DNA from: Protoeuglena noctilucae
Lineage: Eukaryota
Length of the DNA: 64,000 bases
Assembly (NCBI GenBank): GCA_958009085.1
Contig: OY253679.1
Coordinates: 868,001 to 932,000 of the forward strand
Reading direction: 5' to 3'
In this document: piece after piece, positions 20,131 through 61,599 of the stretch
Numbering within the stretch: position 1 is the first letter of the stretch
Layout of the letters: every line of letters starts with the position of its first letter
Notes under the pieces: generated by a model
The model's input: the letters and a program-made list of their open reading frames with translations, nothing else
What the model was told of the DNA's origin: nothing
Databases searched by the model: none
Translations under genes and position numbers: made by a program

Positions 20131-23100
20131 ATGCGGAAGAAGATCGACTCGCGCATCCGCACGCTGGTGGATAACTGCGTGAAGACCGGCGAGCGGTCCA
20201 TGTTCGTCATTGTCGGGGACAAGGGGCGCGACCAGGTCGTCAACCTGCACTACATGCTCAGGTGCCCGCAGCGAGCGTTGTTACAACTCCGCCTTTATTA
20301 ATTATTCACCCCTGTGCGTGTCGGAGCGACCCGCGCGGCTTTCCGGACGCGCGGCACCTGTTTCCGCGCTCCGCAGCAAGATGCAGGTCAAGGCGCGGCC
20401 GAGCGTGCTGTGGTGCTACAAGAAGGACCTGTACATGTCATCGCACAAGAAGAAACGCATGCGGCAGATCAAGCAGATGGCGCAGCGGGGGCTCCTGGAC
20501 CCCGACCAGGAGGACCCCTTTTCGCTGTTCGTGGCCGCCACGAGCATCCGCTACTGCTTCTACAGCGAGACGCACCGCATTCTGGGCAACACGTTCGGCA
20601 TGTGCGTGCTGCAGGACTTCGAGGCGCTCACGCCCAACCTCCTCGCGAGGACGATCGAGGTGACGAGAGTGGCACAGGGTGGACGAACAGGGTGGCACGG
20701 TTTGGTTGGTTGTTAAGAGCAGCTTCTGTTCTAAGGGTCACTGCCACTCCTTGTGTGTCTCTCTGTTTGGCTCTTGCTGTCATCGCCACTGCACCCTTCT
20801 TATCTGCACCACCACTCACCTCCCACCACACCCACCTCCCCTCAACCCCCCACCACACCCACCTCAAGCCCCTCAACCCACCCACCCCCACCCCAACCCC
20901 CCGCAGACGGTGGAGGGCGGCGGCATGATCGTGCTCCTGCTCTCCACCCTCACCTCCCTGACGCAGCTCTACACGCTGTCGATGGACGTCCACGCCCGCC
21001 TCCGCACCGAGTCTCACCACGACGTCGTGGGCCGCTTCAACGAGCGAATGGTGCTTTCGTTGGCGAGCAACCCCAACTGTATGTTGGTCAACGACGAGCT
21101 CAACCTGCTCCCCACCTCCTCGCTCGTGCGGCACATCGCGCCGGTGCCGCCCGATTTCAAATCGGCATCGGATGATTCGAAAAGGGAGCTGGGGGAGCTG
21201 CACGCGGCGCTGCAGGACACGCAGCCTGCGGGGACGCTCGTGGGGGCGTGCAGGTGAGAGTTGGGTTGGGGTGGGGGTGTGGGTGTGGGTGTGGGGGTGG
21301 GGGTGGGTGTGGGTGGGTGTGGTGGTGTGGGTGTGGGTGGGGGTCCTGGGTAGTGGTGGTGGGTGGAGAGGGGTGCATTCAGGGCACTGCTATGCTTGCG
21401 ACCATCGCCTGCAACCATAGCTTTTCATAGTACTGAAAACCAATTCCCCCCACCCCCAATCATCAGGACGCTCGACCAGGCCCGCGCGGTGGTGACCTTC
21501 CTCGACGCCGCATCTGAGAAGACCCTTCGATCCACCGTGGCACTCACGGCGTCGCGAGGGAGGGGCAAGTCGGCGTCATTGGGGCTGGCGGTGGCGGGGG
21601 CGCTGGCCATGGGGTACGCCAACGTGTTTGTGACGGCGCCAAGCCCGGAGAACGTGCGCACGCTGGTGAGGGTACTGGTGGGGGAGAGGGGTGTCGGAGT
21701 AGAGGGAAGGTGCGGACGCTGGTGAGGGTATTTTTGGAGAGATCAGGGCGTGGTGTGTGGTGGAGTTCGAATATGTACGTTACAGGTAGTGTCACTTTTG
21801 ATTCATGTTCATTGCATCACAACACCACCTATCACACATCACACATCACCTGTCATACACCACACCCCCACCCTCGCCCTCTTCCCCTCCCCCCCCTCCC
21901 CCAGTTCGAGTTCGTCTTCAAGGGCCTGGACTCCCTGGGCTACAAAGAGCACCTCGACTACGAGCTGGTCGAGGCCACTATGCCGGACAACAGCAAGTGC
22001 GTGGTGCGCGCCAACGTCTTCCGCGACCACCGGCAGACGGTGCAGTTCGTGGACCCCCAGCACAGTGAGAGGCTCAGTCAGGCGGAGCTGCTGGTCATCG
22101 ATGAGGCGGCCGCCATTCCGCTGCCGGTGGTCAAGAGGCTGCTGGGGCCCTACCTGGTGTTCTTCGCCTCCACGGGTGAGCTGATTATCTGCATATATGT
22201 ACTGTGATTACAGCTGTTATTTACTGTGTTGGTGACACGCCTGGTGTTCTTCGCATCCACGGGTAAGGAGGCATGGCTGTGTAATTGGATGTGTGAATGG
22301 ATGGGCGTTGAGGAGCATGTGAGCGGGTGGGCCACCGCCCCCCACCTAACCGTCCCCACCCCACCCCTTCCCCACCCCCACTCACCCACCCCCCACTCTC
22401 CCCCACAGTCAACGGCTACGAGGGCACCGGCCGCTCCCTCTCCCTCAAACTCATCAGCCAACTGCGCGACCAATACAACGCCTCCCTCACTGCCACCACC
22501 ACTGCTACCGCCACCGCCACCCCCACCCGCACCTTCCGGGAGGTCAAGCTATCGACTCCCATCCGATACGCCCCGGGGGACCGGATCGAGTCCTGGCTGC
22601 ACGAGCTTTTGTGCCTCGACGCCGCCGACCGCGTTCCGCCCCTCCCAAAGGCGCTCCCCCACCCCAGCGACTGCGAGCTGTACTACGTGCAACGAGACAC
22701 GCTGTTCTCCTACCACCGAGCGTCCGAGGCCTTTCTGCAATCGGTCATGGCTCTGTATGTGGCCAGCCACTACAAGAACACGCCCAACGATTTGTTGTTG
22801 CTGGCAGACGCGCCCGCTCACCACCTTTTCGTGCTGCTGGGGCCGGTCGATGAGGCCAGCAACGCGCTGCCGGACGTGCTGTGCGTGGTGCAGGTGGGAT
22901 GGGATGAATGAGCAGGGGTGGGGTGTTTGTGTGCGATATGCAATGTGACGAGTCTTGTGCCATGCGCACTGCACTGCGATGTTTTGGGTTCGATCACATG
23001 AATCGCTCATCATCATCGTAAATGTTATCATCTGCAGGTGGCATTGGAGGGGGCGATATCGAGAAAGGCAGCAGCCGCGTCGCTGGCGGGGGGGAACATG

Positions 23101-26100
23101 CCGCAGGTGAGGGAGTTTGATAAAGATGGGAATCGGTGATGTTGGTATGGATGTTGACATTGTTACTAATATAATATAATATAATATAATATAATATAAT
23201 ATAATATAATATAATATAATATAATATAATATAATATATAATATAACATCAACCCTTCTTATCCCCCCATCTATTCTCAGGGCGACTTGATCCCCTGGAC
23301 CGTGGGGCAGCAGTTCCAGGACCCTGACTTCCCGGGCCTCTCTGGCGCCAGGATCGTGCGCATCGCCACCCACCCGGAGCTGACCCGGTCGGGGTACGGC
23401 TCGCGGGCCGTGGCGCAGCTGGCCGAGTACTTTCAGGGACACATGCAAGGGCTGGGGGAGGAGGAGGGGGATGAGGGGGAGGGGGATGGGGAGGTGAGGG
23501 GGGTGGTTTGGTTGTTGTGTGGGGGGGTGCTGTTGGGGGTGGCAGTGAGGGTGGCAGTGGGGGTGGAGAGGTGAGGTGGGTTTGTTGACTGGGGCAGATG
23601 CGGGGGCTGGGGGAGGAGGAGGGAGATGAGGAGGGGGATGAGGGGAGGTGAGGGGGGGTTGTTGTTGTTAGGGGTGGCGGTAAGGGTAGCAGTGGGGGTA
23701 GCAGTGGGGGTGGTAGTGAGGGTGGCAGTGGGGGTGGCAGTGAGATGTAAGGAAGCAATAACATTGACATTTGAGTGTAAACAGTCTTTTCTCTGTTATC
23801 ACCTCACAGGGATCCAAGGGCAGCGGGGCGAAGGCCAAGAGCGGTGGGAAAGCGAAGGGGAGCGGTGACAAGAGCGGGTCTAAGGATAAGGGCAGGAGTG
23901 GGGATAAGGATAAGGATAAGGATAAGGATAAGGATAAGGATAAGGATAAGGATAAGGAGTCGAGGCTTCTGACGGAGCAGATCCAGCCCAGGCAGGGGCT
24001 GCCGCCCCTGCTGACGCACCTGGCCGACAGGCGAGGATTACATGTGGGGGTGTGTATTGATGTGTGGTACTGAATCATGTCACGTCATGTAATTGTAACT
24101 GGTCATTTCAAGTGATTGTTACAATGATAATGGTGCTGCTTACGGCGCATTGAGACCCAAGCTACCCCACTGCCACCCTCCCTGCCACCCTCACCCCCAC
24201 CTTCACACCCCCACCCCACCCCACTTCCCCCCCAGGGCCCCCGAGCCCCTGCACTACGTGGGCACCTCCTTCGGCCTGACTCAGGACCTGTACGGTTTCT
24301 GGCGCAAGAACGACTACCTGCCAGTGTACCTGCGCCAGACGCCCAGCGACGTTACGGGGGAGCACACCGTCATCATGCTGCGCCCGCTGCAGGCAGACGA
24401 GGCGAGCGGGATGGGAATACTGTAGTTTTATGGTTATATTTAATAAGCAAAACTATGATATAACATTATATTTATCAGAAATTATACTTTGTTTATTATC
24501 AAAATGATACATATTATAATATTTTCTGTTATTATTTCCACTCACCCTCACACATCCTCTCCCCCAAACCGCAGATCCAGGACGCCTCGTGGGTCCATTC
24601 CTTCGTCTCGGATTTCCGCCGCCGATTCGTGTCGCTCCTGGGCGGCCCCTTCCGGTCCTTCTCGCCCGCCATGGCGCTCACCTTGCTCGACCCCAAGATC
24701 ACATTCGCGGAGAGGGAAGCCTCGGTGCATGGCAGCGGGGGTGGCGGTGGGGGTGGTGATAGGGGTGGCAGTGGGGGTGGTGACAAGGGTGGCGATAAGG
24801 GTGGCAGTGGGGGTAACAGTAACAGTAACGGTAATGTTAAAAGCATCGATGGTAATGCGGATGTCCCGAGGGTGGTGAGGGCGGACGGGGAGGTGGTGGA
24901 CGCGTATGACATCAAAAGGCTTCAAGCATATGCCAACTCGCTGGTCGACTACCACATGGTCATGGACCTCGTGCCCGCGGTGAGAATGATATTTATGATA
25001 AGTTATTAAGTTATTTTACATGATACTTCATTCTCCATGAGTTGCATGTGACACAACTAGCACAGGGGAACAAGTGGCATGCGGTATCACCGACATCGAC
25101 TAGTATTAGTAAATAGTACTAGTAAGTACGAGTCAGTATCATTAACTATTGCCGACATACCTCTCCCCTTCCGCAGCTGGCCAAGGCCTACTTCGCCCGT
25201 CAGATCCCCGTCACTCTCTCTTACGGCCAGGCTGCCATCCTGCTGTGTTTGGGACTGCAGATGGCGGACGTTTCAACGGTGGAGAGGGCGCTGTCGCTGC
25301 CGGCCAACCAGATTCTGGCGCTGTTCAACAAGGTGAGGGGGTGGTGGTGAATGGAAGATTGTGCTTCTATTCATGTCACATGGTATCTCATCTCCCCATC
25401 ACTCCCAGACCATCCGCCGCCTGTACCAGCACCTGCGTGCGTCCAAGGAGGCCGCGGTGGAGAGGTCATTGCCCGCCAGGCACAGCCATGCCCCGGAGAT
25501 GGGGGGGCCGATGGGGGACTTGGATGCCGAATTGGACGAGGGGGCCAAGGTGAGGGGATACGGGGAGTGAACTTGATCTTACAGTCTAAAATGTCGTAAA
25601 TGCACTGTTTGTGGTGTGTCGATGGCAAGGGGACCCAAGGGGACCCTGCTCTGTAGTACTACGCTTGCACTCACCCGCCGACTGTAACAGAACCCCGACC
25701 ATAGTTACGATCATTCGGCACGGCTGTCATCATTGGTTATAATTATCGTCATCACTATGTCAACCCCCACCATGCTTTGCTCCCCATCTCAGGCGGTTCG
25801 CGACGCCATGGCGTCCCAGCTGGACCCAGCTCTGCTGCAGCAGTATGCCATTCGGGGTGACGACGACGATTTGGCAGAGGCGGTGGGGGGGGCGTCGCTG
25901 GTGGCGGGCAAGGTGGTGTCGGTGAAAAGCATGGGGCGGGAGGGGGAGGGGGAGGGGGCGGCCATGCTGTACCAGGCGAGATGGGGTGTGGGGTAGGGGT
26001 GTGGAGTGTGATGTGTGTGAAGTGGGACGATGTGTTGGCGATGCTGTACCAGGCGAGTTGGGGTAGGGTACAGTGGGATTTGAAATGTGCTATGCGGAGT

Positions 26101-27714: not shown

Positions 27715-29818
27715 ATGGCGGCCGCGGCCCCGGGCCCAGGGGCCCAGCGCCTGAGCGAGGACAACGTGGCGAAAGCGTCGGGAATCGACACGGGAGCGGC
27801 GCGCGCCGTCGCCCGCATCAACACGAGCAATGCGGAGACCGAGACGGACACGGTTTCGGTCCTGGCGGAGGGCTCGGCCGGTCCCACGAAGTGCTGGGCT
27901 CCCCCGCAACCCGGGCGGCGCCGCAAGGCGAGTCTCTGCGCCGCGCGGGCCCCTCCGCTTGCCATGCGCGTGACCATACCTGCGAAATACGCAAAGCTGT
28001 ATCGCAGATTGAGTCTGCAGATGTCGACATGTGCTGATTCTTGCTCTGCATAGCGTGGCTGTGAGCAATCACCTTCATACTTACCAAATGGCATCTGTCT
28101 GCAGATCATCATCGACACGGATCCCGGCGTGGACGACGCTTTGACGATCTTCGCGGCGTTCAACAGTCCCGACGTGGAGGTGTTGGGCCTCACGACGCTC
28201 TTCGGCAACTGCCGCACGGGTGAGGGTCGGGGGTCAGGGTGGGGGTGAGGCTGAGGCTGAGAGTGAGGGTGAGGGTGAGGGTGGGGGTGGCAGTGGGGGT
28301 GAGGGTGGGTGAGGGTGAGCGTGGCAGTGGCAGTGAGGGTGGCAATGTGAGCAACGCTGTGTTACCCCACCCCACCCCATTCCTCGCCTCACACAGAGAC
28401 GTCGACGCGCAACGCTTTGCTTCTGTGCGAGATGGCGGGCCGGGCGGACGTACCCGTGGCAGAGGGGGCGTATGGCCCGCTGATGGGCGGCGTGGAGACG
28501 AGGGTGGCGGACTTTGTGCACGGGCGTGATGGGCTGGGGGACTGCGGGGTGTCGCGGGAGCCCGTTGCTGTGGCGCAGGAGTGCAGTGCGGCGCACTTCA
28601 TTTGCGAGGTGAGGGGTGGGGATGAATGGGGTGGGGTGACACGGCGCTACTCTCACTACCACTGTCACCCTCACTGCCACCCTTCACTGCCACTATCACT
28701 GTCACTCTCACCCCCACTGTCACTCTCACCCCCACTGCCACCCTCACCCTCACTGCCACTCTCACCCTCACTGCCACCCCCACCCCCACCCCCCACCCCC
28801 AGACCCTCACCCGCTACCCCGGGGAGGTGACCATCCTCGCGATCGCCAGCCTTACCAACGTGGCCCTCGCCATGGCCCTCGATCGCCACTTCAACGACAA
28901 GGTCGGGGAGGTGGTCGTGCTGGGAGGTGCTTATCGCGTGGCTGGTAACGTAACCCCTGCTGCCGAGGCTAACATATGGCACGATCCGGAGGCGGCAGAC
29001 GCGGTGTTCACGAACTGCACCAAGGTCCGGGCGCTGGGGCTTGACGTGACGCACCGTGTTCCGCTGACGGCCAAGCAGCTGGCGGGGCTGGAGGGGCAGG
29101 GGCGGTTCGGGACGCTGGTGGCGAGGGTGTCGCAGGTGAGGGTGGGGTGTGAGTGACTGATGGGGTGTGATGGGTGGGTAAGGGTGTGGTGTGGTGTGTG
29201 AGGTGTGCCTGGTGGGGCATGAGAGAGATGGTTCAGAGGTTGCTAGCAAATTCGGGTCTCGCATTACAGGTGCCCGATTTATCATCTCTCAACCGCAGCA
29301 CTATTCCACTACTTTGAACTGACAACACCGCTCTCATCCACATTCAATCACCCCACCTCCCCCCCGCAGTACTACCTCAACTTCCACCGGGAGAGCCAGG
29401 GCATTGACTATATTCATGTCCACGACCCCACGGCACTCGTGGCCATCTTACACCCCGAGTACTTTGCTTACGATCTCGGCCCTGTCGTGGTGTGCCTGCA
29501 AGGGCCCATGCGGGGCAAGACCATCCAGGTGACGGTTGTGGTGCGGGGTGGGAGTGAGAAGGGATGTGGAAGGAATGTAAGGTTGCGGATTGTGAGACTC
29601 TTTGCAGGGTGATAAGACAGGATGCATTTGTGCACATGGTGACGACACAGATGTCGTTCGCAATTACATGCTCCCCCTTTCCTTCTCCCCCGCAGGACCC
29701 CCGCACGCGCAAGTTCGGCTTCCCGCACGAGTGGAGCGCCCGCCCGCCGGTGCTGGTGGCCGCGGACGTCGACCCCCGCGCTGTGCAAGCCAAAGTCATC
29801 GACCTACTCACCGTGTAA
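27715..29818 (+). CDS. Inosine/uridine-preferring nucleoside hydrolase (uridine nucleosidase-like)
   Basis: IIIDTDPGVDDA; LGLTTLFGN; VADFVHGRDGLGD; SLTNVALA; VLGGAY...GNVTPAAEANIWHDPEAA; GLDVTH; VHDPTA. Stop TAA at 29816-29818. Confidence 0.92.
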
Positions 29819-33550: not shown

Positions 33551-36423
33551 TCACAGCGCCCCCGCATGCTTGAGCTTCCGCAGCGTGGGGTCGTGGATCC
33601 TCTCCCTCGTGCGCCCGTCCTGGTCCTTCACACTCTTGAACCTCGGCATGTCACTCCTTGACTTGGGCAGGGGCATCTCCCTGAACCAGGGGTGCGCGAG
33701 GGCCTCGGTGGCGGTCAGCCGGGACGAGGGGTCCCAGGCCAGCAGGCGGGATAAGAGGTCGAGTCCTGCCTCGGTCATAGTGGGGTAGGAGGTGACGCCG
33801 ATGCCGGCCGCGTGGGAAAAGCGCTCGGCGAGGCGGGAGCGGGGGTTGCAGCGGGACCAGGAGACCTCCTGAGAGGGAGGGGAGGTGAGGGTGGTGGTGG
33901 TGGTGGTGGTGGAGAGATGGCGTGGTTGTTGAAGTGGTTATGTAGAGTGGTGGGTAGCAGGAGCGAGGAGGCGTGCGCTAATGTTAAGCCCCCGATCACC
34001 AGCACCCTTCCTCGCTTCTCGCTCCGCTTCACTGCAATCACACACAAGCGCCCGCATCCGCCGCCCCTCACCCGCGACCCCGGCAGCGACCGGAAGCCCG
34101 GCCAGATCTGCTCCGTGGGCGCGCCGAGGAGATCGCAAAACTGCGTGAGCATGTCCAGCTCCGACTGGCCGTTGAAGAGCGTCTCGTGGAGCATGAGCTC
34201 CGCCATGATGCACCCGCAGCTCCACATGTCCGAGGCCGGGCCGTACTTGGACGCGCCAAGCATGATCTCGGGAGCGCGATACCACGCCGTGCACACCCCG
34301 GGCGTGTAGTCGGCCTGCGGACGGACGGCGGGAAAGGGGCAGGAATGGGCGCACGGCTGCCGATGGGTGCGGCTGCACCAAGCTGCACGCTACAGACCTG
34401 CCAAAAAACCCGCAGCGACATTTGAAGTGTCACAGTAACTTGCACTAGCAGGGCCGTCCGGCTCTCGGATCTCGGCATGTACCCAAACAGCGCAACATAC
34501 GGTCCCCAACCCAGCCCTCTTGCCTTGGCGTCTGAGGAGAACTGCCGGGCCATGCCGAAGTCGCAAATCTTGAGGAGCCCCGTGTTGCTAAAGAGGATGT
34601 TGTGGGGCTTGAGGTCCCGGTGCATGACCCAGTTGTCGTGGAGATACTCGATGCCCCGCAGCAGCTGCACCATGAGCTGCTTGATCTCCGAGAGCTGGAA
34701 CGGCTGCGGCATTTCCTCCATCAGCGTCTTCAAGTCGTGATCCATGAACTCCATCACCATGTATATCTGCGCGCAGAGACGGACGGGGAGCGAGGAGTGA
34801 GCCGCACCGCGCGCGCCACCCTCCTGCCCACCCTGCACGGCCTCGCGGCGCGCCCCGCCTCCCGCGCTCCGCTCGCCTTGTCGATTTTGCTCCCCACGAC
34901 GACCTCGCGCACGCCCACGACGTTGGGGTGCCGCAGCGCCAGCAGCAAGTTGAACTCGCGGACCGACGTCTGAGGGAAGCCCTCGCGCTCCCGGTGCATT
35001 TTGACCTGCTTGAGCGCGTAGATGCGATCCGTCTGCGAATCGCGCGCGCGAAACACCGTCCCGAACGTCCCCTCGTCCACCATGTTGAGCTTCTCGAACT
35101 CTTCCACGCTTCGGCACTCGTTCCATATCGACACGTCACCCAGCCCGTCGTCCGCGTCGCTCCCCGCGCCATCCGCCGCTCCCCGCGCTTCTCCGTTCTC
35201 GGCCTTCGCGCCAGCCTCGTCCGCCCCCGCGGCGCGGGCGTCCCCTAACTCCTCGTCCCCCTCCCCCTCCCCCGCCCCCGCCTCCGCCACCTCCCCTGCG
35301 CCCTCGTCACCCCTCTCCACAGGCTCGCCGCCCGCCTGCGACCCGTCCTGCGACATGTCCTCCTCGTCGTGCCACAGCGGGGCCGCGCGGCCAGGGCCCC
35401 GCGAGTCCCGCCCCCCGCCCAAGTCGGCCCCACCGTCCGCCACCAGACGGCTCCGGAAAGCCTCCGCCTCGGCCCGAATCCGCTCCGCCTGACTCAGCGG
35501 GCGCTCCGGCGCCTTCGACGCCGCCGACGGGCTCGGGGAACGCCGCGGAGACCGCCGGGGGCTGCTGTCGATCTCCCCGCTCTCTGCAGGTGCCGAAAAC
35601 GGGACGTGTGGACCTAACTGAACGCCCATCGACGCCCCCAGACATAGCTGTTGTGCTACCAACTCCACTCGCCTCGACTTTGAGACCGCTCGCGCTGCCG
35701 GGAGCGCGAACGCGACCGCTGCTGGCTCCCCCTCCACGACATCGGCGACTGCGACCGCGCCGGCGTCCCCCCGCCCTGCTGCGCGGCGCGTTCCTTTGCT
35801 GCCTTGACCACCTCCGCCAGCAACGGGTTCTGCGCGACCAGGAAGGGCGGCACGGAGGCGTTATTGGCCACGACAACGACAACCAGCGCGCGTGGCACGC
35901 AGCTTCCACGATCCGATCCCGCTCCGCGCGCTTCAAGCGAGGAATGCATTCTTAAACGAAGGAGCAGCGTGCATCTGCCCCCGCACCTTCACCGTCGGCG
36001 GGGGAGGTGGGCCCCGGTCCCGGGACGGCTGGCCCCTGTCATTCCGCCACTCCCTGTCCCTGTCCCTCTCCCGATGCCGCTCCCCATCCCTGTCCCTATC
36101 CCTGCCCCTGTCCCGGTCCCTCTCCCTATCCCACTCCCCCTTGGCGGGGCGGTACCCGCGTGCTTCCGCCCGCTGCTCCCCAAACCTGCGAGCAAGCCCT
36201 CGGGACGCAGATGTCACGCGCGCGTCGGTGAGATATACGCGAAAGAAGTTGATGCGCGCGTGTCGAGCCTCGCTTGTCCCCGGGAGCGCCTCCCGGGCAG
36301 GAACGCGCAGCGACAGGCGAGCAGGCCGCGAGCCGCCCGGCCGGCAGGCTCCCACCTACGCCGATCTCGTCTGTCGCCCCTGTCTTGGGGAAAGTCTCCT
36401 CGCCGACCCTCCTCAAATGCCAT
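33551..36423 (-). CDS. Cyclin-dependent kinase of the CDK10/11 (plant CDKG-like) group with RD/RS-rich N-terminus
   Basis: [41 protein letters not shown] (PITSLRE-like); [36 protein letters not shown]. Confidence 0.9.
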
Positions 36424-39596: not shown

Positions 39597-42500
39597 ATGA
39601 TGAGTGGCGGCATCGCGTCCCGGCCGGTGTTGCGTCCGTCCTCGCGTCGCTCGCTGCCCGCCCGCCCTCCCCGCTGCGTGCACCCTTGGTGCGCCCCCTC
39701 GCCTCGCAGCCGGACCGAGAGCGGCAGCAACATCCTCGCCAAGATGGAGGAGCTCGAGACGGCGCTCCGCGACACGGGTCCGACGCGCGAGGAGAAGCAG
39801 CAGCTGCTCGCGGCCCTGCACCCGTCGTTCTTCGACCCCGCGGGCGACTGCGCCCTGCAGGCGCTCCAGTCGCTGCCCGCGAACCCTACCGCGGATGCCA
39901 GTGAGTGCATCCCCGCGGCCCGCGCCCTCCCGCGCGGCTGGCGCGCGCGCTGCGGGCCCGCTGCAGGACCGACCGCGTTTCCCCTCCAATGCGCTTGCTT
40001 ACTGCCGATCCCCGCCATCCTCGCAGTCGAGAAGGTCATCGAGAATTACCAAGGCGTCCTGGACATCGTCGGCGGGGAGCTCGCGGACCACGTCTTGGCC
40101 AATTACGACGAATTCGTCGAGGGAGGTGACGATGGGGAGGCTATTGCGCTTAGATCCCCTCGCAAGCGGCGACGGAAGTAGTATCCGTTACTTTGCTATC
40201 TCTTGCGCTTTCCATCGGTCGCCTTCCTGTTCCAGCCAGCCGCCTGCGCCGACTGCCCCACCGCTCACGCAGCGAAGTGGGCCCCCTGCCTCTGTGCAGC
40301 GCTGCGGGCATCGCTGCGGTCGTCGCGACGCACGCCGTCCTGCGTTTCGCGTCCCCGCAGTGAACGAGGTGTCCCGCGTGGACAGCACGATCCAGCTGGC
40401 GGCCGTGCTGGCCCGCAACTGCCGCCGCCGGCTGGCCATGGCGCTCGAGAGAGTCAAAGTGGACCTGGACATTGCGCACATGTCGCTGAGGAAGAGGAAC
40501 CTGTTACAGGCGAGGGATGGGCTGCGAGATGGGCTGTCATGCGAGCGAAGACCGACGTTGGCTCACACGTCGTCGCAGCTCCCCACAGCACCCTCACTCT
40601 TCATGCATCTCAGCACACAAGCACCATCCTAGCACCCCTTCCCACAGCACCCTTCCCTCCCCCTCCCCCCCCAGGTCGCCTCCATCATGCAGCGCCTCTT
40701 CGCCGCCCGCGGCCTGATGCAGCGCGTGAGCGAGGCCAACAAGTCCAGCGACTTCGCCGCCGCCGTCCTCGCCTGCGCCGATTGCTCCGCGGGCATCGAC
40801 GATCTCGGTCCTTTGTTAGTCGCTGAGGATTTGCAGGCATCCATAAGGGCAGCCATGGAGGCCACGTTACGCGTGGTGGAGGAGGCGCTGTTTCTGGCAT
40901 GCGCCGACTTCGCGCCCCGGAGGTACCTGGGGCCCCTGCAGACGTACCTGGTGCTGGGGGAGGCGAAGGTGAGAGGGGGTGGGGGGTGGGGGTGGGGGTG
41001 GGGGTGGGGGGATGAGTGGGTGTCTGTGTAAGGGTGGGGATGTGGATACGTGCCTGTGTGGCTCAGGTGCACTGCTGGAGCAAGACACCTGCCCCTCTCC
41101 CTGCCAGTGACCCACCCGCCCATCTCATACCCATCCCCAGGAGTTCACCGACAAGATCCAATCGGCCCTCACCCGCGTCCCCATGGACCGAATGATGTCC
41201 GTCATGCGTGCCTACGCCCACGCCCCCACCACCACCGCCACCGCCACCCCCGCCGGCCCCCTCACCTCCCCCCGTGACCGTGCCCTCCGCTCTACGTCCA
41301 CGCTATCGCCCCGCGACGCCCCCGGCCCGGGCGACCTCCTTCGCCAAGACTCCGCCAGGCACTCCCTGGGAGTGCTGTCGGGCGCCCTGCCGTGGGGCCT
41401 GGGTGCCCAAGCATTTCAGGACGCCTGCTCCCATCTGCCGCCCGATCGCGTGGAGACGTGTCTCTTGTCTGCGTGTGACGTGGCGGTGTCGATCATGGCG
41501 TCCCTGCATCGGATGGAGAGGTGGAGCCGGAGGGGGGCGGTGGCGATTGGGGCGGAGGGGACGGGGGAGGGGGGTGGGAGTGCGGGTGCGGCCGCGGGTG
41601 GGGGTGCGGGTGGGGAGAAGGGAGGGTTGTCGGGAACTGCGGGCGGTGCGGGTGCGGGTGGGGGGAACGCAAATGCGGGTGTGACGGATGGGGCGGATGC
41701 AGCGGTGGGGGTGGACGAGGATGAGGACGGGGATGCAGGGGGCGGGGAGTGGCGCGTGTCCTACGGGGAGCTCTTAGCTGTATCCGGGCAGGAGCTGGAG
41801 CGTGCGTTTGTGTCGGGGTGCCTGGCCCAAGCGGCCGCGACGGTGGCGGGGGGGCGGCGCATGGTGTGGGAGAGTCTGATGCGCCGGGTGTTGTCGCTGC
41901 TGAGCGCGCCCGCGGCGTTAGACTCCCTGGGCTTCCAAGGCGCACTGAGGTGGACCCAGGGTTTGGAGGAGGTGGGAGCGGCGTTCACGGGGCAACGGGG
42001 CGGCACGCTGCACGCGCACCTGGGCCTCGTGCACCGGCAGCTGTTCTCCGCGCACCACCGCCACGGCATGGACGTCCTGCGGTCGCTGGCGCAACGGGAG
42101 ACCTGGCATGCGGTGCGGCTGGCCGATGCGATGGGCAAGGCGGTTGTGAGCCTGCGGGAGGTGCTGGGGAGGGCGCAGCCGGGGTCCGCGGTGTTCGGGG
42201 CGTGGGGGAGGGAGCGGGGGGAGGAGGAGGGGGGCAGGGGGGGCGACGGGGGCAGCGAAGGTGAGGGGTAGTGGGGTGGTGGGGGATAGAGGTAAGGTGG
42301 GGCTGTTAGGTGTGGTTTGGATGTCTTTGCTCCATCAATTTCGCTGTCTTAATTGGCAGCTGTCATGCAATCAGCCGCTTGATGTGTCGAACCTTCACAA
42401 CGCCCTCGCAACCACCCCAGCCCACCACCTCCCACCCAACACCTCACTCCCACCCCTCGTCCCCTCCCCCGCAGCGCCCACCGCCAACCACGCCCACCAC

Positions 42501-45090
42501 GCAGACCACCCCCTGGCAAACACACCCGGCGACGCACCCCACATCAACGGCCACTCCCCACGCGCTCGCCTACCCCCCGGCTACCCCCCCCGCCCGCTAT
42601 CCGAGGTCCCTATTCCCGCACTGAACGATCTGGTGCAGGGAGGCGGGCCTTTCAAAGAGGGCGGGTGGCTGAGGCAGCTGACGGGGCCGGCGTGGGCCTA
42701 CGATGTCGGCCCCCAGTGCCGCCCAGCCGTGGCGCCCGGGGCTGCGGAGGAGGCGTCGGGGAGCGGGAGGGGCGGCGCGGGGGCGGATGCGGGCGCGGGA
42801 CAGGCGCGGGGGTCGCGGGGGGGTGGGGGCGGGGGTGGGGTGCCGCGCGATTTGCGGTATGCGGGGGGTGGGGGCGAGGCTGGGCGCGGGGGCGGGGGCG
42901 GGTGGGGCCGCGGGTGGGGCGCGGGAGAGGCGACGGTGACCGCCACGTCTGCCCGGGTGGAGCGCATGTGGGCGTGTTACTTGCACCTGTGTCTGACGTC
43001 ACAACTGCCAGTGGCCGACCTTCTGGACGCCGCGGCCCAGGCGGCGGAGGTGCTGCTGGTCGCGGTGTTTCAGGCGTTCGGGGATCCCTGGGGCGGGGCG
43101 CCGGTGGGGGGCGGCGTGGGGGCGGGGGCGGGTGCGGGTGCAAATGCGGGTGCGGGGGGTGGCAAGGCGGCGACGGTGGACGTTCCCATGCCGGCGCGGC
43201 TCAGAGCGGCGCTGCAGAGGGCCAAGGCGCGCGTCGGGGACGTGCGGGCGGCGGCGGTGGTGGCGGCGCCGGCGGCAGCGGCGGCATCGCCGGCGAAGGG
43301 GGTGGGGGCGGGGGGCGGGGTGCCTGGGGTAGCGGCGCTGCTGGGGCGGGGAGGGGGCGCGGAGGACGGGAAGCGGGCGGACGGCGGCGGCGCGACGTGG
43401 CTACAGAAGATGCGGCTGCCGGGAGTGACTGGTATGGGTGCGGGTGGGGCGGTGGGTACAAGTGTGGTGGCGGGTGCAGTGGCGGGTGCGGAGGGTGCGG
43501 GTCAGCGGCAGGGGTCGCAGGGGCTGTGCCTGCTGCCGCGGGCGTCGGCTCTGCGTGCCGTGGAGCGTCTGTGCGCGCTGGTGGGGGAGGCACGGGGGCA
43601 GATCCGGGCGCTGTGCCTTGGGGTGGACGCGGGGGGCAAGGTGGACGAGGACGGGTGAGGGTGGTGGGGGGGCTTGGTGGGTGGGGCGGGTGTGGGTAGA
43701 GAGGTGGATGAGGACGGGTGGGGGGTAGGAGGGGGATGATAGGGGGTGGTGAGGGGTAGCAAGGGTGTTGGGGTGGTGACGATTTGGTCCCCACCCACCG
43801 TCTCGACCAGAGCAATGCACCATTCATGCACTCCAGTCACCTCAATAAGCCATGTACCATTCATGCGCCCTCGCCCTCCCTCCCGCAGCATCGTGAGGGA
43901 CGGCCCCACCTCGGCATCCAGCGACACCTCCCACCTCGCGGGGGAGAACACGGTGAGGGACTGCTTGATATGAGAGATAAGAGCTTAACTGTCCAGTTAC
44001 TGACTAGTTACCACTGCCAACGCGCCCCTTTCCGCTCACCTCTCCCCCCATCCCACCCACCACCACCATCACCCACCACCCACCACCCCCTCACCTCCCA
44101 CGCCATCACCCACCCCTCTCCCCCAGGCCGCTGCCGAGGCCCTCTTTGCCGTCGTGGACGCCTGTGCTGACCTCCCCGCCCACGTCATGTCCGTGGCGGC
44201 CGTGCAGGCCACCTCCGTCGCCTGGCTGCCCGAGCGCGTGGCTGCCACGAGGTATGACCTGGCCGACGTGGGCGTGCACGAGTCCCCTTGGGTGGTGGAG
44301 CTGCAGGGGTGCTTGTCCGCGCTGCGGGCGCGCGTGGACGGGGAGATGGGCGCGGGAGGGGTTGCGAACAGCGCATCGGGCGGCAAGGGGGCGGGGAACG
44401 GGGTAACAGTGGCAAAGGATGGGGCGGGGGTGGCGGAGGCGTGGGGCGTGCCCAGGGAAGCGGTGGACGAGGCTCTGGGTCTGTTCTGGCGTTCCGTACT
44501 CGGCGTGGTGTGTTCCGCGATCGTCGAGGGGCTCTCGCGCGTGCGGCGGTGCACGATGGAGGGCCGCAGCCGGATGATGCTCGACATGCAGATGCTGTCA
44601 GCCCACGCGAGGACGCTCGTGCCGCCCGGCTGCCCCGTGGACACGTTCGTCGTCGATGAGTACGTGCAGGGGTTCTATCTCGAGGTGTCGGTGAGTGGAT
44701 GGGAGCGTGGGGATGGGTGGGTGATTGCGGGTGTGGGTGGGTGATGGGGTGGTAGCGGGCGATGCAGGGTGGGTGCAGCTTTGTTGTTGGGGAGCGAGTA
44801 ATGATGCGATGTGCTGTATCCTGTGTCTGTATAGTTCCGACTAGCTGCTGCATTACACTGTTGCTGGGGCTGTGTGGAAGCGAAAGCGGTCGACTTTGGT
44901 GCCGACCGTCGCAAACCCGGCCCGTCTGTCGCAGGAGCTGATCCTCTGGCTGCGCTCCAAGCCCCAGTACTCGAAGCGGCAGGTCGTGTCGCTCGTCTCG
45001 ATCGTCGCGGAGCACCACGGCATGAAGAAGCGGCAAGTCAAGGACCTGATGTCGCACGTCGACCCCGCAGCGGCCGAAATGCTCACGTGA
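39597..45090 (+). CDS. VPS50: Syndetin / VPS50 (EARP complex subunit)
   Basis: N-terminal LDIVGGELADHVLANYDEFVEG...NCRRRL. C-terminal IVEGLSRVRRCTMEGRSRMMLDMQ, VDEYVQGFYL and ELILWLRSKPQYSKRQVVSLV are typical of the syndetin C-terminus. Confidence 0.85.
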
Positions 45091-45705: not shown

Positions 45706-47781
45706 ATGGTGGGTCGGAAGAACAGCATGACGATTGGGGAGAAGCTCACGCTGGTGCAGATGGCGGTGCTGTGGCAGGACAAGGAGATCCGCTTCGAGGC
45801 GGACAAGAGGAATTTAATCCTGGTTTCGGGGGAGGAGGTTCTCGTGCGAATATACAAGGCCGAGGACGTCAAGGGCGGGGAGGGGAAGGCGAGGGCGCGG
45901 GGTATTGAGGTTTGACACACTTTGCTGAGCTCGTTGTGCTTCTCTTGTTCGCAAGGATAAGCGCCCGTGCCCCTCGCAGGTCGGTTCGCTGTTCGTGACT
46001 TCGCTGCGCGTGTTGTGGCTCGCGCGCAAGGACCTGGAGCACAAGGCCTCGACGAACCTCAACCTGTCGGTCGGCCTGGGGAGCATTTTCGACCTGAACG
46101 TCGTCACGCGGGAGTCGCGGGTCACCGGGAACGTCGCTCGGCTCGAGGCAAGGCGCAGGCCGCGTCGCGGAGGCACAGCGCGGGGCGCAGAGCTGCGCAA
46201 ACACGCGACTCAGCTGCACAATTAACAAGCTTCGTTTTCGCGATCGCGCGCGCAGGTATTGAGCCGGTTCGAGAACAGCAAGTACCAGTTCATCTTCAAC
46301 TGCACGACGTCGCAGATGGGCAAGCTCGAGGCGACGAAAAAGGTCTGGAAGGCGTTCCAGGCGTCGCGGCTGTACCGGTGAGGCCGGATGGGGTGGTTGT
46401 TGCTGTTGCTGTGGCTGTGACTGCACCGGTGAGGCTGGGTTGCAACAGCTACTCCTGATGCTGTTGCTGATGCTGTACCAGCGAGGCTTGGTTGCTGTGT
46501 CAATGGTACGCAACCCCACCACCCACCACCGCCACCCTCAACCCCACCACCCCCCTCCCTCTCAGCGAGCTCAAGCTCCGGGGCTCCTTCATCCGCGACG
46601 GCGAGCTTATCTGCCTCCCCGGCGAGAGCCTCATCAACAAGATTCCCAACGTCATGAATCTGGCGAACAACCAGGGCAACATGGGCACTTTCTACCTCAC
46701 CAACGCCCGCCTCGTGTGGTGCGCCAACCACAACGAGTCGTTCAACGTCTCTATTCCCTTCACGCAAATACTGGCGGTCAAAGTGCGCGAGTCCAAGTTC
46801 GGGCCGGCACTGGTCGTGGAGACGAACCCCAAGGCGGGGGGGTACCTGCTGGGGTTCAACACCAACCCGGGGGAGAGGTGAGAGCGGATGGTTGTTGATG
46901 GAGTTCAATGCTTACTTAAACGAGCGGTGAGTGGAGAGGGTATCCGCTGGGACTGAACACACATCCAGTCATGATGTTTTCTTATTTAACTCACAGTAGC
47001 TTTTAACTCCATGCCAATTCACCCCCCCCAGACTGGAGGGGGTGTACCGCGAGGTGCGGACGGTGTGGAAGTCGGGCGTGTCGCGGCCGGACCTGGGGAC
47101 GGCCACGGTTCAGGACATCATTGCGGAAGGTACGTGCGTGCATTATCTTGAATCATTGGCTATAATGGGATAAAGGTTCGTGATAGTGGCTCAGTGGGTG
47201 TTTGTATGGGCGGGGTGGCAAAGGTGCAGGACATCATCGCGGGGGGTGGGAAGTTATTGTCATGGATTATTGGTTATAATGGCTTGTTTATTATGATGGG
47301 TGCGATAGTGACTTGGTGTGCGTTTGTATGGGAGGGGTGGCTATGGAGCTAAACGAATTAGTCAGCTAATCAATTCATTCCCAATTCCCGCAGAGGAGGA
47401 CCGGGAAGAGGCATTAAAGATGCTTGAGGACGTGCAAATCACCGACGCGCCCGAGGTGAGACGGGGAGTTGCATTCAGATTCAAATGCAAACTCACTCGC
47501 GTTCACTTATTGTCACTAGCACAGTACTATCACTCTCATTGTCGCTTTTACTCATAGACTCACTCGGCACCCTCTTATTGCCAGCCAAAGATGCCATATC
47601 TGTTAAGTGCCATATCTTATCCCTCACCCTTCCAACCCAGGCCCGCGACACGCTGCTCAGCTACATCCTGGAGCAGGGCAGCACCTCCAGCAAAGCCCCC
47701 GTCTATTCGGCCGAGTTGGGGGTGGCCATCGAGCCACTCAAGATGGACATGACCCTCGACGAGCTGTGGTCCGTGCTTTGA
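45706..47781 (+). CDS. BBS5: Bardet-Biedl syndrome 5 protein (BBSome)
   Basis: LWQDKEIRFE; EDVKGGEGK|VGSLFVTSLRVLW; LYRELKLRG; NLANNQGNMGTFYLTNARLVW; SKFGPALVVET...GGYLLGF; PVYSAELGVAIE...TLDELW. Confidence 0.93.
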
Positions 47782-58000: not shown

Positions 58001-59427
58001 TATCCCCCCACCCCCCCTCATTCCAGATCCCCAAGGCCACGGTGGCCCCCGACTGGTACGGCATTGGCAGCGAGCGTGATCAGATGCAGAGCGTGAACAG
58101 CCTCATCCCCAAGCCCCCCAAGTTCAATTGGGATCAGTTCATGGAGCACGGATCGAACGTGCTGAGGTTCGCGGCAAGGCTCGTCGAGGCCGAGGGGTGC
58201 CGGTGAGGGTTTGGGGTGGTGTGTCCGGTGGGGGTCACGGGGATGATGTGAGAGCGAGGGTGCTGGTGAACGAAATAGAGGTGAAAGAAATAGGACTAAG
58301 AAAGCGGGCGGCCTCGCCCAAAACCCTCCCTCACATCTCCAACCCCTCCCACTCACCACCTCACACCCACCCCTCTCACCTGACTCACCCATACCAACCC
58401 AACCCCGCTCTTAAACCCCCCCCAGCCTGCTCCCCGCCGACGACGTGCGCGAGTTCATCATCACGTACTTCTTGGCGGACGACACGATTCAGATCTACGA
58501 GCCCCCCATCCGCAACTCGGGCATCATCGGGGGGAAGTTCCTCGAGAGGACCACCGTCAAGAAGCCCAACAGCATCCACGTGGTGAGAAATTGTGTAAAG
58601 TACTACCATGTCCAACATACGTATCTCCACCGACCACTCACCCTTAGCCCTTTCAATCACCCTCATTGCTACCCCCACTGCCACCTCCACTCACCCCTCA
58701 CACATCACCACATCACACCCCGCCCACCCCCCCCAGGAGTACCGCGCGCGTGACCTGGCCATCGGGGGCCACCTCGTGACCCTCTCCCGCTGCTTCGAGC
58801 TTTACGACGCGGACGTCTTCACGTTCAAATTCATGGAGCAGAACTGCAGGGACTTCCCTCAGGCGGACGCAGCGAGGGTGCTGGGCAAGTGCCGGGCGGC
58901 GGTGGGGACGGCCGAGGTGAGGGGAGGTGGTGTGAGGGGGGGTGTTATAGAGAGAGAGTGGGGGTGGCTGAGGGGGTAGTGATGGTGAGGGGGTAGTGTG
59001 GGTGCTGCGCAGTCGGGTTGATAGAGAGGAGAGTGGGCGCGGTGTGTCTGGGCGTCGCGAAGGGATTGTTACTAGAGCGCTACTAGACAGCTTTTGTACC
59101 ACCTTATCATCCGACATCCATACCAATAACAATCGCCCCCACTCACCACTCCACTCACCACTCACCATACCACACCCACACCCACTCCCCACCCCCCCCT
59201 CATCCCCCCAGGCCCGTGAGGCGGTGCAGTCGGTGATCGCCGAGTCGACGGACGCCTCCACGGGCGCCGTGCCGCTGCCGGACGTGGCCGCGGCGTTCGC
59301 GGCGGCGGGGTGCGACCTCACGCCTCATGAGCTGGTCACGCTGGGGAGGAGGCTGGGGGACGAGCGGGGCAAGGCGCCCATCCCGGCCGCGAAGCTGCTG
59401 CAGGAGGTCGGGCTTAGCGGGAACTAG
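55008..59427 (+). CDS. RIB72/EFHC-family axonemal protein with three DM10 domains
   Basis: PKLPG N-terminus; WLAFDRRVLRFFAFFKE...YYLEDGT|VHMGEPREDNSGIPQGVFL; YDRKVLRFFAVWDD...YYLSDDTVEV...NTGRDPFP; FLADDTIQIYEPPIRNSGIIGGKFLER. Confidence 0.92.
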
Positions 59428-59645: not shown

Positions 59646-61599
59646 ATGCAGTTGGCTCGATGTGGCGCTGCCCCTGCAGCGCGCCCGCTCGTGCGCGGGA
59701 GTCGCCCCGCAGCCGCGAGGGCGGTCTCCGTGCAGGTACGACATGCGAATGTGCTCGCATCCCAGTCCGGGCGCTTGCCGGGGGGACGCATGAGCCCGGC
59801 GGGGTCGCGCACGGGCTGGCCAAACCTCGCCCCTCCCCGCTGCCCTCTCCCGCGCGCAGGCGGCCATCATGAAGGAGAGGGGCGCGTATACGACGAAGGG
59901 GACGGTCAGGAAGGCCAACGAGGACGTTTTCGAGGTCTCGGTGTCGGACGCGGGGCCCTTCTTGCAGGCGCGCGTTAGCGGCAGCGCCGCGGCGCCCTGC
60001 GGTCACGGAACTCGGCGCGAGCGGCGCGATGCAATTTTTTGTTGCGTTAAAAGGCCCCCGCATGCGATTCGCTGTGATCGTCCGGGTCCCGAGGCGGAAC
60101 GCGGCGTTGCTTTCCCTACCGCAGTACTGCGGCGTGTTTGACGGGCACGGGGGCTCCGCGACGGCTCTGTGGCTCAAGAAGGAGCTTCTTGGATACATCG
60201 AGGAGGAGTGGTGCGTGGCGGGGCCCGCAGCGCTGCGCCCGGGCGCTCGCGCGGCCGTCGCTGTGCATTGTGCGATTTCTTCCGCCCTTCGCGCACGCAG
60301 GCAGGCCGGCAACCCCGCGCGTGCCCTGCAGCGCGCCTTTCTGGCGGCGGACCGTCAGATCCTGAGCGCGAACAGCGGCCTGTTCGGGATGATGGGCGAG
60401 CGCGGCATCGGTGGGTCCAAGTGCGGAGCGACCGCAGCTGTGGCGGTGGTGTATGAGGAGAAGGGCGGCGTGAAGCTGGCGACGGCGAACTGCGGCGACG
60501 CACGGATCCTGCTCGTGAAGTCGGACGGGTCGGTGGAGGCGCTGTTCGAGGAGCACGTCCCCGACAATGAGGCCGAGAGGAAGGCGAGCAGTTAAAGGGG
60601 TGGGGGAGGTTTTTTATGGGGAGTGCTTGTCTATGGAGAGTGGTTGTTTATGGAGAGTGGTGTCTATGGAGAGTGGGGTGACTGACTGATATTGATGGAT
60701 TGTCTATGTGTGGAGTGACTGGTTCATAAATGGTCTGTTGGTGGGGTAACGATTTTGAGTACCGCCCCTTCTATACCCCTATCCACCATGTTGTCAACCC
60801 ATTCAGTACTGCCCATTTCCACTAAACCCCCGCAGCGCATTGAGAAGTACAACCCGAACCCCAAGATGCCCCTGGTGCGCTTCGTGGGCGGCACCTGGCG
60901 CGTGGGCGGACTGCTCGCCCTCTCCCGCGCCTTTGGCGACGCCTATTTGAAGTCCTCTCTCCAATTCGAGGGCGTCCCGCTGGGATCGGACGGCTACTCG
61001 TCCGGATTCGGGGTCATCGCGGAGCCCTACGTGGCGGTGCGGGATTTGACGAAAGACTGCACGCACGTGGTGGTGGCGTCGGATGGGCTGTTCAACGAGG
61101 TGCAGGTGAGAGATGAGGGACAGGGGTAATGAAGGGTGCTTAAATGTGAGTGAATGGGGTGAGGAAGACTGAGTGCACGTGAGGCTGGTCATCGCCTGCA
61201 TACGTCTGATGACGCCACCCAGCCCATCACTGCCACCACCGCACCACCACCACCCCAACACCCTTCACCCCACTCACCCTCACCACCCCCACCCCCCCCC
61301 CCCCCCCCCCCCCCCCCCCACTCACCCCTACACCCCCCACTCACTTTACCACCCCTGTACCCCCCAAACCCCCCCAGCGCGGCGGCGGCGGCGGCCTGAC
61401 CAACGAGGAGGTGGCCGCCATGTGCAAGTCCCAAGGCACAACGTCTAGCAACGAGCTGGCGATTCAAATGACCGAGAAGGCGGTCGAAGCGGGGTCCACG
61501 GATGACGTCACGGTGTGCGTGCTGCGGCTGGACAGCGCGAGGCTGCCGGAGGGGGTGGCGGGGGCGGCGGCGGGGGCGGGGGGGGTGGGGAGCGCGTGA
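59646..61599 (+). CDS. PP2C/PPM-type protein phosphatase, probably plastid-targeted
   Basis: Transit-like exon MQLARCGAAPAARP...; RKANED; GVFDGHGG; CGATA; ANCGDAR; GLLALSRAFGD; VVASDGL; GSTDDVTV. Confidence 0.9.

Follow-up and report, generated by a model that had tools for sequence, protein, structure and literature searches.

A G/C-skew wave tied to splice sites and reaching synonymous codon positions in a 64-kb window of Protoeuglena noctilucae

Why should the introns of a GC-rich alga begin rich in G and end rich in C, and why should the coding sequence between them follow in mirror image? The question is raised by a 64-kb stretch of Protoeuglena noctilucae DNA (contig OY253679.1, positions 868,001 to 932,000; hereafter the window, with positions counted from its first letter), which has a GC content of 65% and a 200-N assembly gap at 12745-12944. 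A sequence-only reading of this DNA had proposed that G-rich and C-rich tracts pair across introns or exons, define the splice sites and thereby constrain codon usage. The results described here, obtained within the window and, for one gene, from public relatives, place each donor and each acceptor of one class of introns in a skew domain of its own. The explanation favored for these domains, with a probability of roughly 0.4, is that they are autonomous and centered on splice sites, that their intronic arms arose by slippage, and that the exon flanks adapted to them, which would keep the splice sites locally unfolded.

Open reading frames are present in all six frames, and a gene finder was therefore written. 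It is a hidden Markov model (HMM) with a codon model, splice-site weight matrices and semi-Markov introns on both strands; strand is resolved for each exon, the model retrains itself, and GC donors receive a prior of 2%. The HMM predicts 143 exons and 105 introns (71 on the plus strand and 34 on the minus strand). The genes of the window include NAT10, a nucleoside hydrolase, a VPS50/syndetin-like gene, BBS5, an EFHC-like gene with DM10 domains, PP2C and others.

Intron skew was measured on the 97 introns of at least 80 nt after removal of the donor hexamer and of the 3 terminal nucleotides at the acceptor. G/C skew averages +0.306 over up to 60 nt at the 5' end and -0.338 over up to 60 nt at the 3' end (Wilcoxon p = 1e-9 and 4e-11, respectively), so the proposed G-rich starts and C-rich ends are borne out, and more strongly than had been claimed. 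Of the 97, 72 have a positive 5' skew, 79 a negative 3' skew and 57 both; in 30, both ends are strongly skewed (above 0.3 and below -0.3). The skew extends 60-100 nt into the intron, past the span of the splice-site matrices. At least three GGG triplets occur in the first 50 nt of 34 of 81 introns and at least three CCC triplets in the last 50 nt of 36, and the reversed layout is found in none of the 81. Over 100-nt bins of the window, local G/C skew has a standard deviation of 0.318, compared with 0.128 after shuffling.

The skewed intron ends, or arms, have a characteristic makeup. The 5' arm consists of G (.44), T (.26), A (.18) and C (.12), and the 3' arm of C (.475), A (.22), T (.21) and G (.10). 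The arms are imperfect tandem arrays with a period of 6, 12 or 18 nt according to Tandem Repeats Finder (TRF), exemplified by GTGAGG x11, GGGTGA x17.8, GGGTGG x13.7 and CACCCC x15. The commonest hexamers are GGGGTG, GGGTGG, GGTGGG and GTGGGG in 5' arms, and CCCCCC, CACCCC, CCCACC, CCACCC and CCCCAC in 3' arms. The earlier suggestion that CTCAC, as the reverse complement of the donor GTGAG, makes introns quasi-palindromic holds in part. CTCAC exceeds expectation in the last 60 nt (25 observed, 14.9 expected), GTGAG is likewise in surplus (23 and 12.5), and 17 of the top 30 hexamers of the 5' arm have their reverse complement among the top 30 of the 3' arm; yet CTCAC is carried by only 15 of the 37 introns classed below as wavy. 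Canonical G-quadruplex (G4) motifs number 113 in the 64 kb. Those in exons lie on the coding strand in 35 cases and on the template strand in one, and 50 of the 59 in introns follow the wave (coding strand of 5' halves, 26; template strand of 3' halves, 24).

The exons carry the mirror image that had been described, with C-ending codons after the acceptor giving way to G-ending codons before the donor. The measure used is G3/(G3+C3) at fourfold-degenerate third codon positions, here the G3 fraction. By quintile, it runs.53,.53,.60,.67 and.67 across 72 internal exons (41 of 68 usable exons positive, p =.0013). In the 28 exons supported by Pfam, it runs.35,.44,.63 and.72 by quartile (19 of 27 positive, p =.0027). 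A plot of these sites against distance from the junctions, as the sequence-only reading had suggested, reveals a positional gradient within the window. In the 32 exons that follow a C-rich acceptor arm, the G3 fraction is.33,.37,.41,.30 and.29 at 0-30, 30-60, 60-100, 100-160 and more than 160 nt, compared with.64,.64,.68,.71 and.66 in the 56 that follow a plain arm (p = 4.5e-8). The corresponding values are.75,.74,.71,.61 and.62 in the 34 exons before a G-rich donor arm, and.58,.61,.60,.54 and.62 in the 52 before a plain one (p =.0015). Exon G3 tracks the adjacent arm at acceptors (Spearman.62, p = 8e-12) and at donors (.36, p = 3e-4). When exon-flank G3 is regressed on both arms, the adjacent arm contributes (b =.29, p = 2e-6; b =.21, p =.002) and the distal arm does not (p =.98 and.32).

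This exon signal is confined to silent choices between two bases. Codon positions 1 and 2 barely shift (.55-.57 by quintile, all internal exons), and GC3, the GC content of third positions, is near.9 in every exon class. Near donors, T occupies.03 of fourfold sites, and T/(C+T) in codons ending in a pyrimidine is.14, equal to the flanks of plain arms. Since GC3 is constant and T at third positions does not rise near donors, the shift is a pure exchange of G and C; the absence of that rise also led to the rejection of C-to-T deamination and of R-loop skew as its source in exons. Splicing is usually held to affect silent sites only weakly and no farther than a few tens of nucleotides from a junction. 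Inside single exons of the window, the ratio of G- to C-ending codons, taken over conserved domains, changes from about 1:2 to 3:1. No description of an intra-exon G3/C3 sawtooth, or of such a wave in green algae, was found in the literature searched, which also yielded no source for G-rich 5' and C-rich 3' intron ends as a known chlorophyte feature.

In-frame arrays with a period of 6, 12 or 15 nt also occur in exons (23454-23502, 22479-22527, 41221-41254, 42204-42234 and 23902-23958). They encode low-complexity inserts that match the wave, rich in Thr, Ala and Pro after acceptors and in Gly, Glu and Asp before donors. The array at 23454-23502 crosses the donor 23493/23494. The periods are multiples of three, and a splice site could therefore slide inside such an array with the reading frame intact.

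A relative with fewer introns shows what becomes of the sawtooth without them. Of 80 metagenome loci retrieved, NAT10 was mapped on 21; most of these are intron-poor or have short introns elsewhere and were left out of the comparison. The close ones are two overlapping contigs, L001 and L002, whose NAT10 is 76% identical in the query exon and whose GC content is.73-.755. In L001, NAT10 has introns at only two of the window positions, each of about 98 nt and C-rich almost throughout (407-504 and 1474-1568). Between the first and last thirds of the seven window NAT10 exons that lie between wavy introns, G3 rises from.35 to.91,.36 to.87,.20 to.68,.09 to.73,.33 to.88,.14 to.90 and.38 to.71. The matching protein intervals of L001 run from.21 to.18,.38 to.40,.20 to.45,.38 to.70,.60 to.62,.08 to.30 and.20 to.29. 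The difference is thus +.33 to +.76 in the window and -.03 to +.32 in L001, and the mean change over all 13 L001 NAT10 intervals is -.02 (p =.85). Because L001 is without these introns and also without the sawtooth, the sawtooth follows the introns and not the protein, in one gene and one relative. In the first two NAT10 exons of the window (20131-20659), G3 falls from.71 to.43 and from.80 to.56, the reverse of the wave. This fall is conserved in L001 (.67 to.17 and.82 to.47).

Not every intron takes part. Introns are called wavy when their amplitude (5' skew minus 3' skew) exceeds 0.8 and plain when it is 0.5 or less, and the distribution of amplitudes looks bimodal. The 37 wavy introns (median 219 nt, GC.57, arms up to about 100 nt long) are longer than the 50 plain ones (median 146 nt, GC.66; length p = 7e-4). 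Introns richer in GC have lower amplitudes (rho = -.49, p = 5e-7), and there is a weak increase of amplitude with position along the gene (rho =.21, p =.04). VPS50, BBS5, EFHC, PP2C, the hydrolase and genes B, I and K begin with one to three plain introns, and wavy ones follow; gene I (33.5-38.6 kb) is largely plain, and every intron of genes A, C, D, E and G is plain. The range given in the sequence-only reading, 20660-61380, does contain the wave, although not uniformly, and the wave also occurs outside it, at 6508-7642 and, on the minus strand, at 62821-63919. With wavy and plain introns side by side in single genes, one may ask whether introns are recognized in two ways.

Two further intron features stand beside this division. 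The AT-rich centers of some wavy introns hold perfect microsatellites, (TAATA)14 at 23167-23238 and (AATAT)5.6 at 62842-62869, in sharp contrast with the GC-rich arms. In addition, 21 of the 105 predicted introns start with GC rather than GT, with a tight consensus AG/GCGAG(G/A/T) despite the 2% prior. Examples are 24031, 25976, 46148, 56170, 57759 and 60584 on the plus strand and 63356 and 38231 on the minus strand. Several lie between Pfam-contiguous exons, as in BBS5, and a share of about 20% would be unusually high. GC donors were rejected as a correlate of the wave (7 of 37 wavy and 11 of 50 plain introns, Fisher p =.79).

Pairing between the arms was the organizing principle originally proposed: G domains would pair with C domains across an intron or exon and so unite the splice sites, and codon choice would lengthen the helices. 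The predicted folds fit this idea. In 25 introns with two arms, the minimum free energy (MFE) structure has 32.4 pairs between the first 70 nt and the last 70 nt, compared with 10.7 in whole-intron dinucleotide shuffles. The MFE is modestly below those shuffles (mean z = -1.10, p =.0018), with 5 of the 25 introns below -2. The top hexamers of the two arms are, as noted, largely reverse-complementary, and there are precedents for bridging structures, namely the (AC)m-(GT)n introns of fish and the GGG/CCC introns of humans (Lin et al., 2016, PMC4691745). When shuffling preserves position by intron quarters, 31.0 arm-arm pairs still form and the energy difference is no longer significant (mean z = -0.53, p =.059), close to the outcome, folding no better than in position-matched shuffles, that the sequence-only reading had itself named as speaking against pairing. 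Nor do the arms behave as partners. An intron's own arms pair like those of other introns (-40.8 and -39.9 kcal/mol, p =.25), and an exon end shows no preference for the start of the next exon (p =.95); the 5' arm and the downstream exon start show a slight preference for each other (p =.007), in one of four tests. Arm sizes are unmatched: among the 64 introns of at least 140 nt, 32 have a G excess and a C excess of at least 15, and in these the two excesses are not positively correlated (rho = -.18). Only one arm is present in 17 of the 64, including the homology-supported intron 23494-23809. Both arms co-occur in 17 introns over the whole window, with 11.9 expected (p =.02). This excess arises from the regional intron classes, since within wavy gene parts the count is 14 against 14.2 expected (44 introns, a small sample; odds ratio.93, p = 1). 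Across exons, arms are not associated (13 against 11.4 expected, p =.27), exon-end G3 is uncorrelated with G3 at the start of the next exon (rho =.01), and exon flanks ignore the distal arm, as the regression above indicates. Pairing thus fits the predicted helices and fails every partnership test, and it is an improbable explanation. From the independence of the arms, their unmatched sizes, the lack of partner specificity and the dependence of exon skew on the adjacent arm, it follows that donor and acceptor domains are autonomous. What stands of the original proposal is that the skew is tied to splice sites, reaches synonymous sites and, judging from L001, goes with the presence of introns; the definition of splice sites by pairing of G and C tracts is not supported.

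Autonomy fits equally well with domains that serve as a platform, in which runs of G/U or C/A would act as position-dependent enhancers, through run-binding proteins or extra U1 and U2 sites, and mark donors and acceptors from both sides, accessibility being incidental. The arms do consist of donor-like and branch-like hexamer arrays, GTGAGG x11 and GGGTGA x17.8 among them, with GTGAG and CTCAC in surplus. In short GC-rich human introns, G-rich and C-rich enhancers act without the predicted stem-loop (Murray et al., 2008, PMC2481429). The exon signal, however, sits at every third base and builds no runs of G or C, as the single exonic G4 motif on the template strand illustrates. Such a platform is unlikely as the main explanation, although it predicts the same patterns as autonomous unfolded domains and is inseparable from them on present data. 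A neutral origin, in which slippage would expand microsatellites seeded by splice signals, purifying selection would sort their orientation, and a structure-linked mutation bias around the arrays (from non-B DNA, R-loops or G4 structures) would leak into the flanking exons, is also unlikely. It would suit the arrays of period 6, 12 or 18, some of which cross a junction (23454-23502 and 44053-44129), the strong orientation of intronic G4 motifs, the in-frame low-complexity inserts of matching composition at exon ends, and the greater length and lower GC content of wavy introns. It is at odds with an exon effect that is a G-to-C or C-to-G transversion at unchanged GC3 without T excess near donors, a swap predicted by no known structure-linked mutation bias, and with how large that effect is (0.33 against 0.75) at synonymous positions in conserved domains. 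Nucleosome-phased mutation was set aside by reasoning, as the dyad patterns of exons and introns are opposite and the wave period is about two nucleosome repeats.

The wave could also be an artefact of the gene models, with skewed "exon ends" that are really intron. Open frames in all six frames make such errors easy in high-GC DNA, and the gene models are predictions. The two long, low-complexity VPS50 exons are in fact ambiguous: the HMM cuts 41141-42260 at a G-rich in-frame stretch of 129 nt (41574-41702), and it places the acceptor after 42260 at 42657, where the earlier reading had 42473. Elsewhere, the evidence for the models is consistent. The coordinates quoted earlier recur within 1 nt for three introns (7418-7642, 40969-41140 and 58917-59211) and five exons, and the HMM recovers the exons read by eye in NAT10 and BBS5. 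The predicted NAT10 borders are the meeting points of six homologues in tblastn searches, with contiguous protein coordinates, and the same homologues revealed two NAT10 exons lost by the HMM; the closest NAT10 proteins are green-algal and streptophyte (54-76% identity, none identical). Pfam matches were obtained for 30 of 44 exon translations, and profile coordinates run on across junctions in NAT10 (TmcA_N 119/120; NAT10 helicase 42/43 and 121/123), the hydrolase (IU_nuc_hydro 37/41, 104/108 and 211/219), BBS5 (BBL5 39/42, 87/92 and 131/133) and the EFHC-like gene (DM10 42/46 and 57/60). The sawtooth persists in the 28 Pfam-supported exons, and for the conserved exons an artefact is highly improbable.

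The favored explanation is therefore taken up again, that of autonomous domains which keep splice sites unfolded. At many donors, the domain comprises about 100 nt on each side that are G-rich and C-poor, and at many acceptors, about 100 nt on each side that are C-rich and G-poor. Their intron halves may have grown by slippage from the splice signals themselves, donor-like in one case (GTGAGG, GGGGTG) and acceptor- or branch-like in the other (CCTCAC, CACCCC). The exon halves consist of silent choices between G and C together with low-complexity in-frame inserts, and the exon skew would be a secondary adaptation to the neighboring arm. A transcript of 65% GC would otherwise fold tightly. Separation of G from C would keep a splice site out of hairpins with its own flank and would leave it on a stretch unable to fold on itself, open to U1, to U2AF/U2 or to run-binding proteins.

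Predicted folding agrees with this scheme, as local structure at the junctions of wavy introns is weaker than after shuffling and weaker than at plain junctions. MFE was computed for an 80-nt window on each junction and for shuffles of the ±200-nt context. Wavy acceptors fold at -15.2 kcal/mol, compared with -23.1 after shuffling (28 of 31 weaker, p = 4e-6, mean z = +1.54), and the value for plain acceptors matched in GC is -25.6. For wavy donors it is -22.4, compared with -25.6 after shuffling (21 of 32 weaker, p =.048), and for plain donors -27.7. The silent sites contribute: when the exon fourfold G/C sites are redrawn at the frequency of plain flanks, junction folding becomes stronger, with the MFE of acceptors dropping from -19.5 to -23.5 (26 of 29, p = 3e-5) and that of donors from -28.4 to -30.3 (22 of 32, p =.04). 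A preference of fungal splice sites for weak local folding provides a precedent (Zafrir and Tuller, 2015, PMC4574748). Selection rather than mutation bias would be the cause, and accessibility would be the trait selected.

Several points weigh against this explanation. Skew by itself makes local folding weaker, as a matter of arithmetic, and so the folding results speak for consistency and not for selection. The effect on the donor side is small (mean z = +0.63), and because the G arms are rich in G and T, they could form G-U pairs or G-quadruplexes, so that the donor domain would not be truly structureless. Half of the introns have no wave at equal window GC, including most first introns and those of genes A, C, D, E and G; none of the explanations considered here accounts for these introns or for the 5' gene parts without a wave. 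The class thresholds and the limits of the "wavy region" were set after inspection of the data. The sample is one 64-kb window with predicted, self-made gene models, and one relative for one gene.

It is possible, though doubtful, that the alga uses a kind of "skew code", in which domains of about 200 nt, one made only of G (or G and U) and the other only of C (or C and A), form a second layer of splice-site definition for one of the two intron classes. Such a layer would dictate whether synonymous codons end in G or in C over a large part of each exon. It would also channel in-frame repeats, Gly/Glu-rich before donors and Thr/Pro/Ala-rich after acceptors. If true genome-wide, this would be among the largest position-dependent effects on synonymous sites known in any eukaryote, and exon-intron structure would be readable from composition alone. 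Should the swing at silent sites hold genome-wide, it would offer a natural system for measuring selection on pre-mRNA at silent sites, one that could separate models of accessibility, protein binding and pairing. The compositional signal could be used by gene finders for GC-rich algae. It would also call for caution in codon-usage analysis and transgene design, as codon choice would depend on position in the exon.

The individual features are collected in Table 1. Apart from these, the window contains a perfect 132-bp tandem duplication at 4135-4409 (2.1 copies, 100% identical), made up of a small exon and a 78-nt intron; the introns 4173-4250 and 4305-4382 within it are identical.

Table 1. 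Introns and exons of the window that illustrate the skew wave or its absence (skew is given as 5'/3'; G3 is the G3 fraction).
Feature	Position	Strand	Measures and support
Wavy intron, (GTGAGG)x11 at 7477-7542	7418-7642	+	Skew +0.90/-0.95; TRF
NAT10 wavy intron; C/A-rich 3' arm, arrays 20807-20901	20660-20906	+	Skew +0.52/-0.91; TRF; homologue tblastn; TmcA_N 119/120
NAT10 exon, C3-to-G3 sawtooth	20907-21253	+	G3 0.35 in first third, 0.91 in last third; Pfam TmcA_N
NAT10 wavy intron; 5' arm (GGGTGG)n-type array 21262-21366	21254-21466	+	Skew +1.00/-0.64; TRF period 6/12/18
NAT10 wavy intron, at about the same protein position as an L001 intron	21666-21904	+	Skew +0.74/-0.90
NAT10 intron, strong C arm (22355-22402), weak G arm	22176-22408	+	Skew +0.13/-0.95; TRF
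NAT10 exon, largest sawtooth	22409-22893	+	G3 0.10 in first third, 0.76 in last third; Pfam NAT10 helicase, GNAT_acetyltr_2
C-rich in-frame array in NAT10 exon 22409-22893, encoding a T/A-rich insert	22479-22527	+	TRF
NAT10 one-armed intron (G arm only); G-rich array 23454-23502 straddles donor	23494-23809	+	G excess 141, C excess 6; TRF; flanking exons homology-confirmed
Nucleoside hydrolase intron; 5' arm (GGGTGA)x17.8, donor-like array 28218-28323	28220-28396	+	TRF; skew +0.81/-0.28; IU_nuc_hydro 37/41
Nucleoside hydrolase intron; long C/A-rich array CACCCC/CACTCT 28649-28801	28609-28802	+	Skew +0.08/-0.91; TRF
Nucleoside hydrolase exon, sawtooth	28803-29135	+	G3 0.27 to 0.92; Pfam IU_nuc_hydro E 1e-31
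Gene I last intron, wavy	33869-34071	-	Skew +0.54/-0.95; other introns of gene I, amplitude -0.40 to +0.73
VPS50/syndetin-like wavy intron, (GGGGGT)n 40975-41010	40969-41140	+	Skew +0.95/-0.59; TRF
VPS50-like long exon(s), C-rich start, G-rich end	41141-42260	+	G3 0.03 to 0.82 over 41141-41572; weak Vps54_N match; HMM in-frame intron 41574-41702
BBS5 first two introns 45889-45979 and 46148-46255 (both GC-AG), plain	45889-46255	+	Amplitude +0.39, +0.25
BBS5 exon between plain introns, no wave	45980-46147	+	G3 0.64 to 0.54
BBS5 wavy intron	46378-46565	+	Skew +0.42/-0.80; BBL5 131/133
BBS5 exon, sawtooth	46566-46877	+	G3 0.20 to 0.73; Pfam BBL5 E 6e-41
EFHC one-armed intron (C arm only)	58583-58736	+	G excess 3, C excess 63
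EFHC exon	58737-58916	+	Previously quoted coordinates reproduced
EFHC intron, largest amplitude	58917-59211	+	Skew +0.95/-1.00
Three wavy introns of one minus-strand gene: 63667-63919, 63191-63356, 62821-62953	62821-63919	-	Amplitudes +1.38, +1.17, +0.82 (transcript orientation)

Several known systems resemble parts of the wave. Introners form a distinct class of about 200 nt with reverse-complement-like ends beside ordinary introns (Gozashti et al., 2022, PMC9860276), as wavy introns do. Unlike introners, wavy introns have no shared core, and at least one wavy intron position is common to the relative. An introner origin was rejected for the window, where an all-against-all blastn of 64 introns gave 39 high-scoring segment pairs, all in low-complexity arms and without a common core. 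In fungi, local folding is weak at splice sites and stronger farther away, over 12-33 nt (Zafrir and Tuller, 2015, PMC4574748). Junction windows here likewise fold more weakly than context-matched controls, and distal parts can pair. In that source, low GC content is suggested as the fungal means by a section heading only, whereas here the means would be separation of G from C at constant GC, over about 200 nt.

Teleost (AC)m-(GT)n introns and human GGG...CCC introns are described as adopting a bridging structure, the criterion in fish being co-occurrence of both repeats across the intron (Lin et al., 2016, PMC4691745). The window introns are similar in bearing complementary simple repeats at opposite ends and, where two-armed, a predicted bridging helix. 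They differ in that the arms do not co-occur beyond expectation within wavy gene parts and in the involvement of the exon flanks, and their order, G/T first and C/A last, is the opposite of that in fish. An intron of another high-GC relative (L038:8665-8926) resembles those of fish in having (GT)n toward its 5' end and (CAACAC)n toward its 3' end, yet with G/T first as in the window.

The intron arms have another counterpart in G-triplet and C-rich intronic splicing enhancers, on which McCullough and Berget reportedly worked. In short GC-rich human introns, a predicted G/C stem-loop proved dispensable when tested (Murray et al., 2008, PMC2481429). The layout is the same as here, with G-rich motifs just past the donor and C-rich motifs ahead of the acceptor, and the dispensable stem-loop matches the independence of the arms. 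Unlike those enhancers, the arms of the window are long arrays in about four in ten introns, and the skew continues about 100 nt into the silent sites of the exon; an enhancer role of the arms is putative.

For the exon flanks, the nearest parallel is the skew of codon and amino-acid use toward exon ends. Known skews of this kind are typically similar at the two ends of an exon and modest in size. In Ectocarpus, exon-end skews are attributed to splicing (Wu et al., 2013, PMC3787667), and as in the window, both synonymous and amino-acid use vary with distance from the junction. Those skews are purine-rich, whereas the two exon ends of the window are opposite in G and C, differ greatly, reach 60-100 nt and depend on the intron class. 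The opposite sign at the two ends argues for a signal other than purine-rich enhancer hexamers. The intron half of the wave is akin to known G- and C-rich enhancers, and the exon half is kin to exon-end skews yet different from them in sign, size, reach and class dependence.

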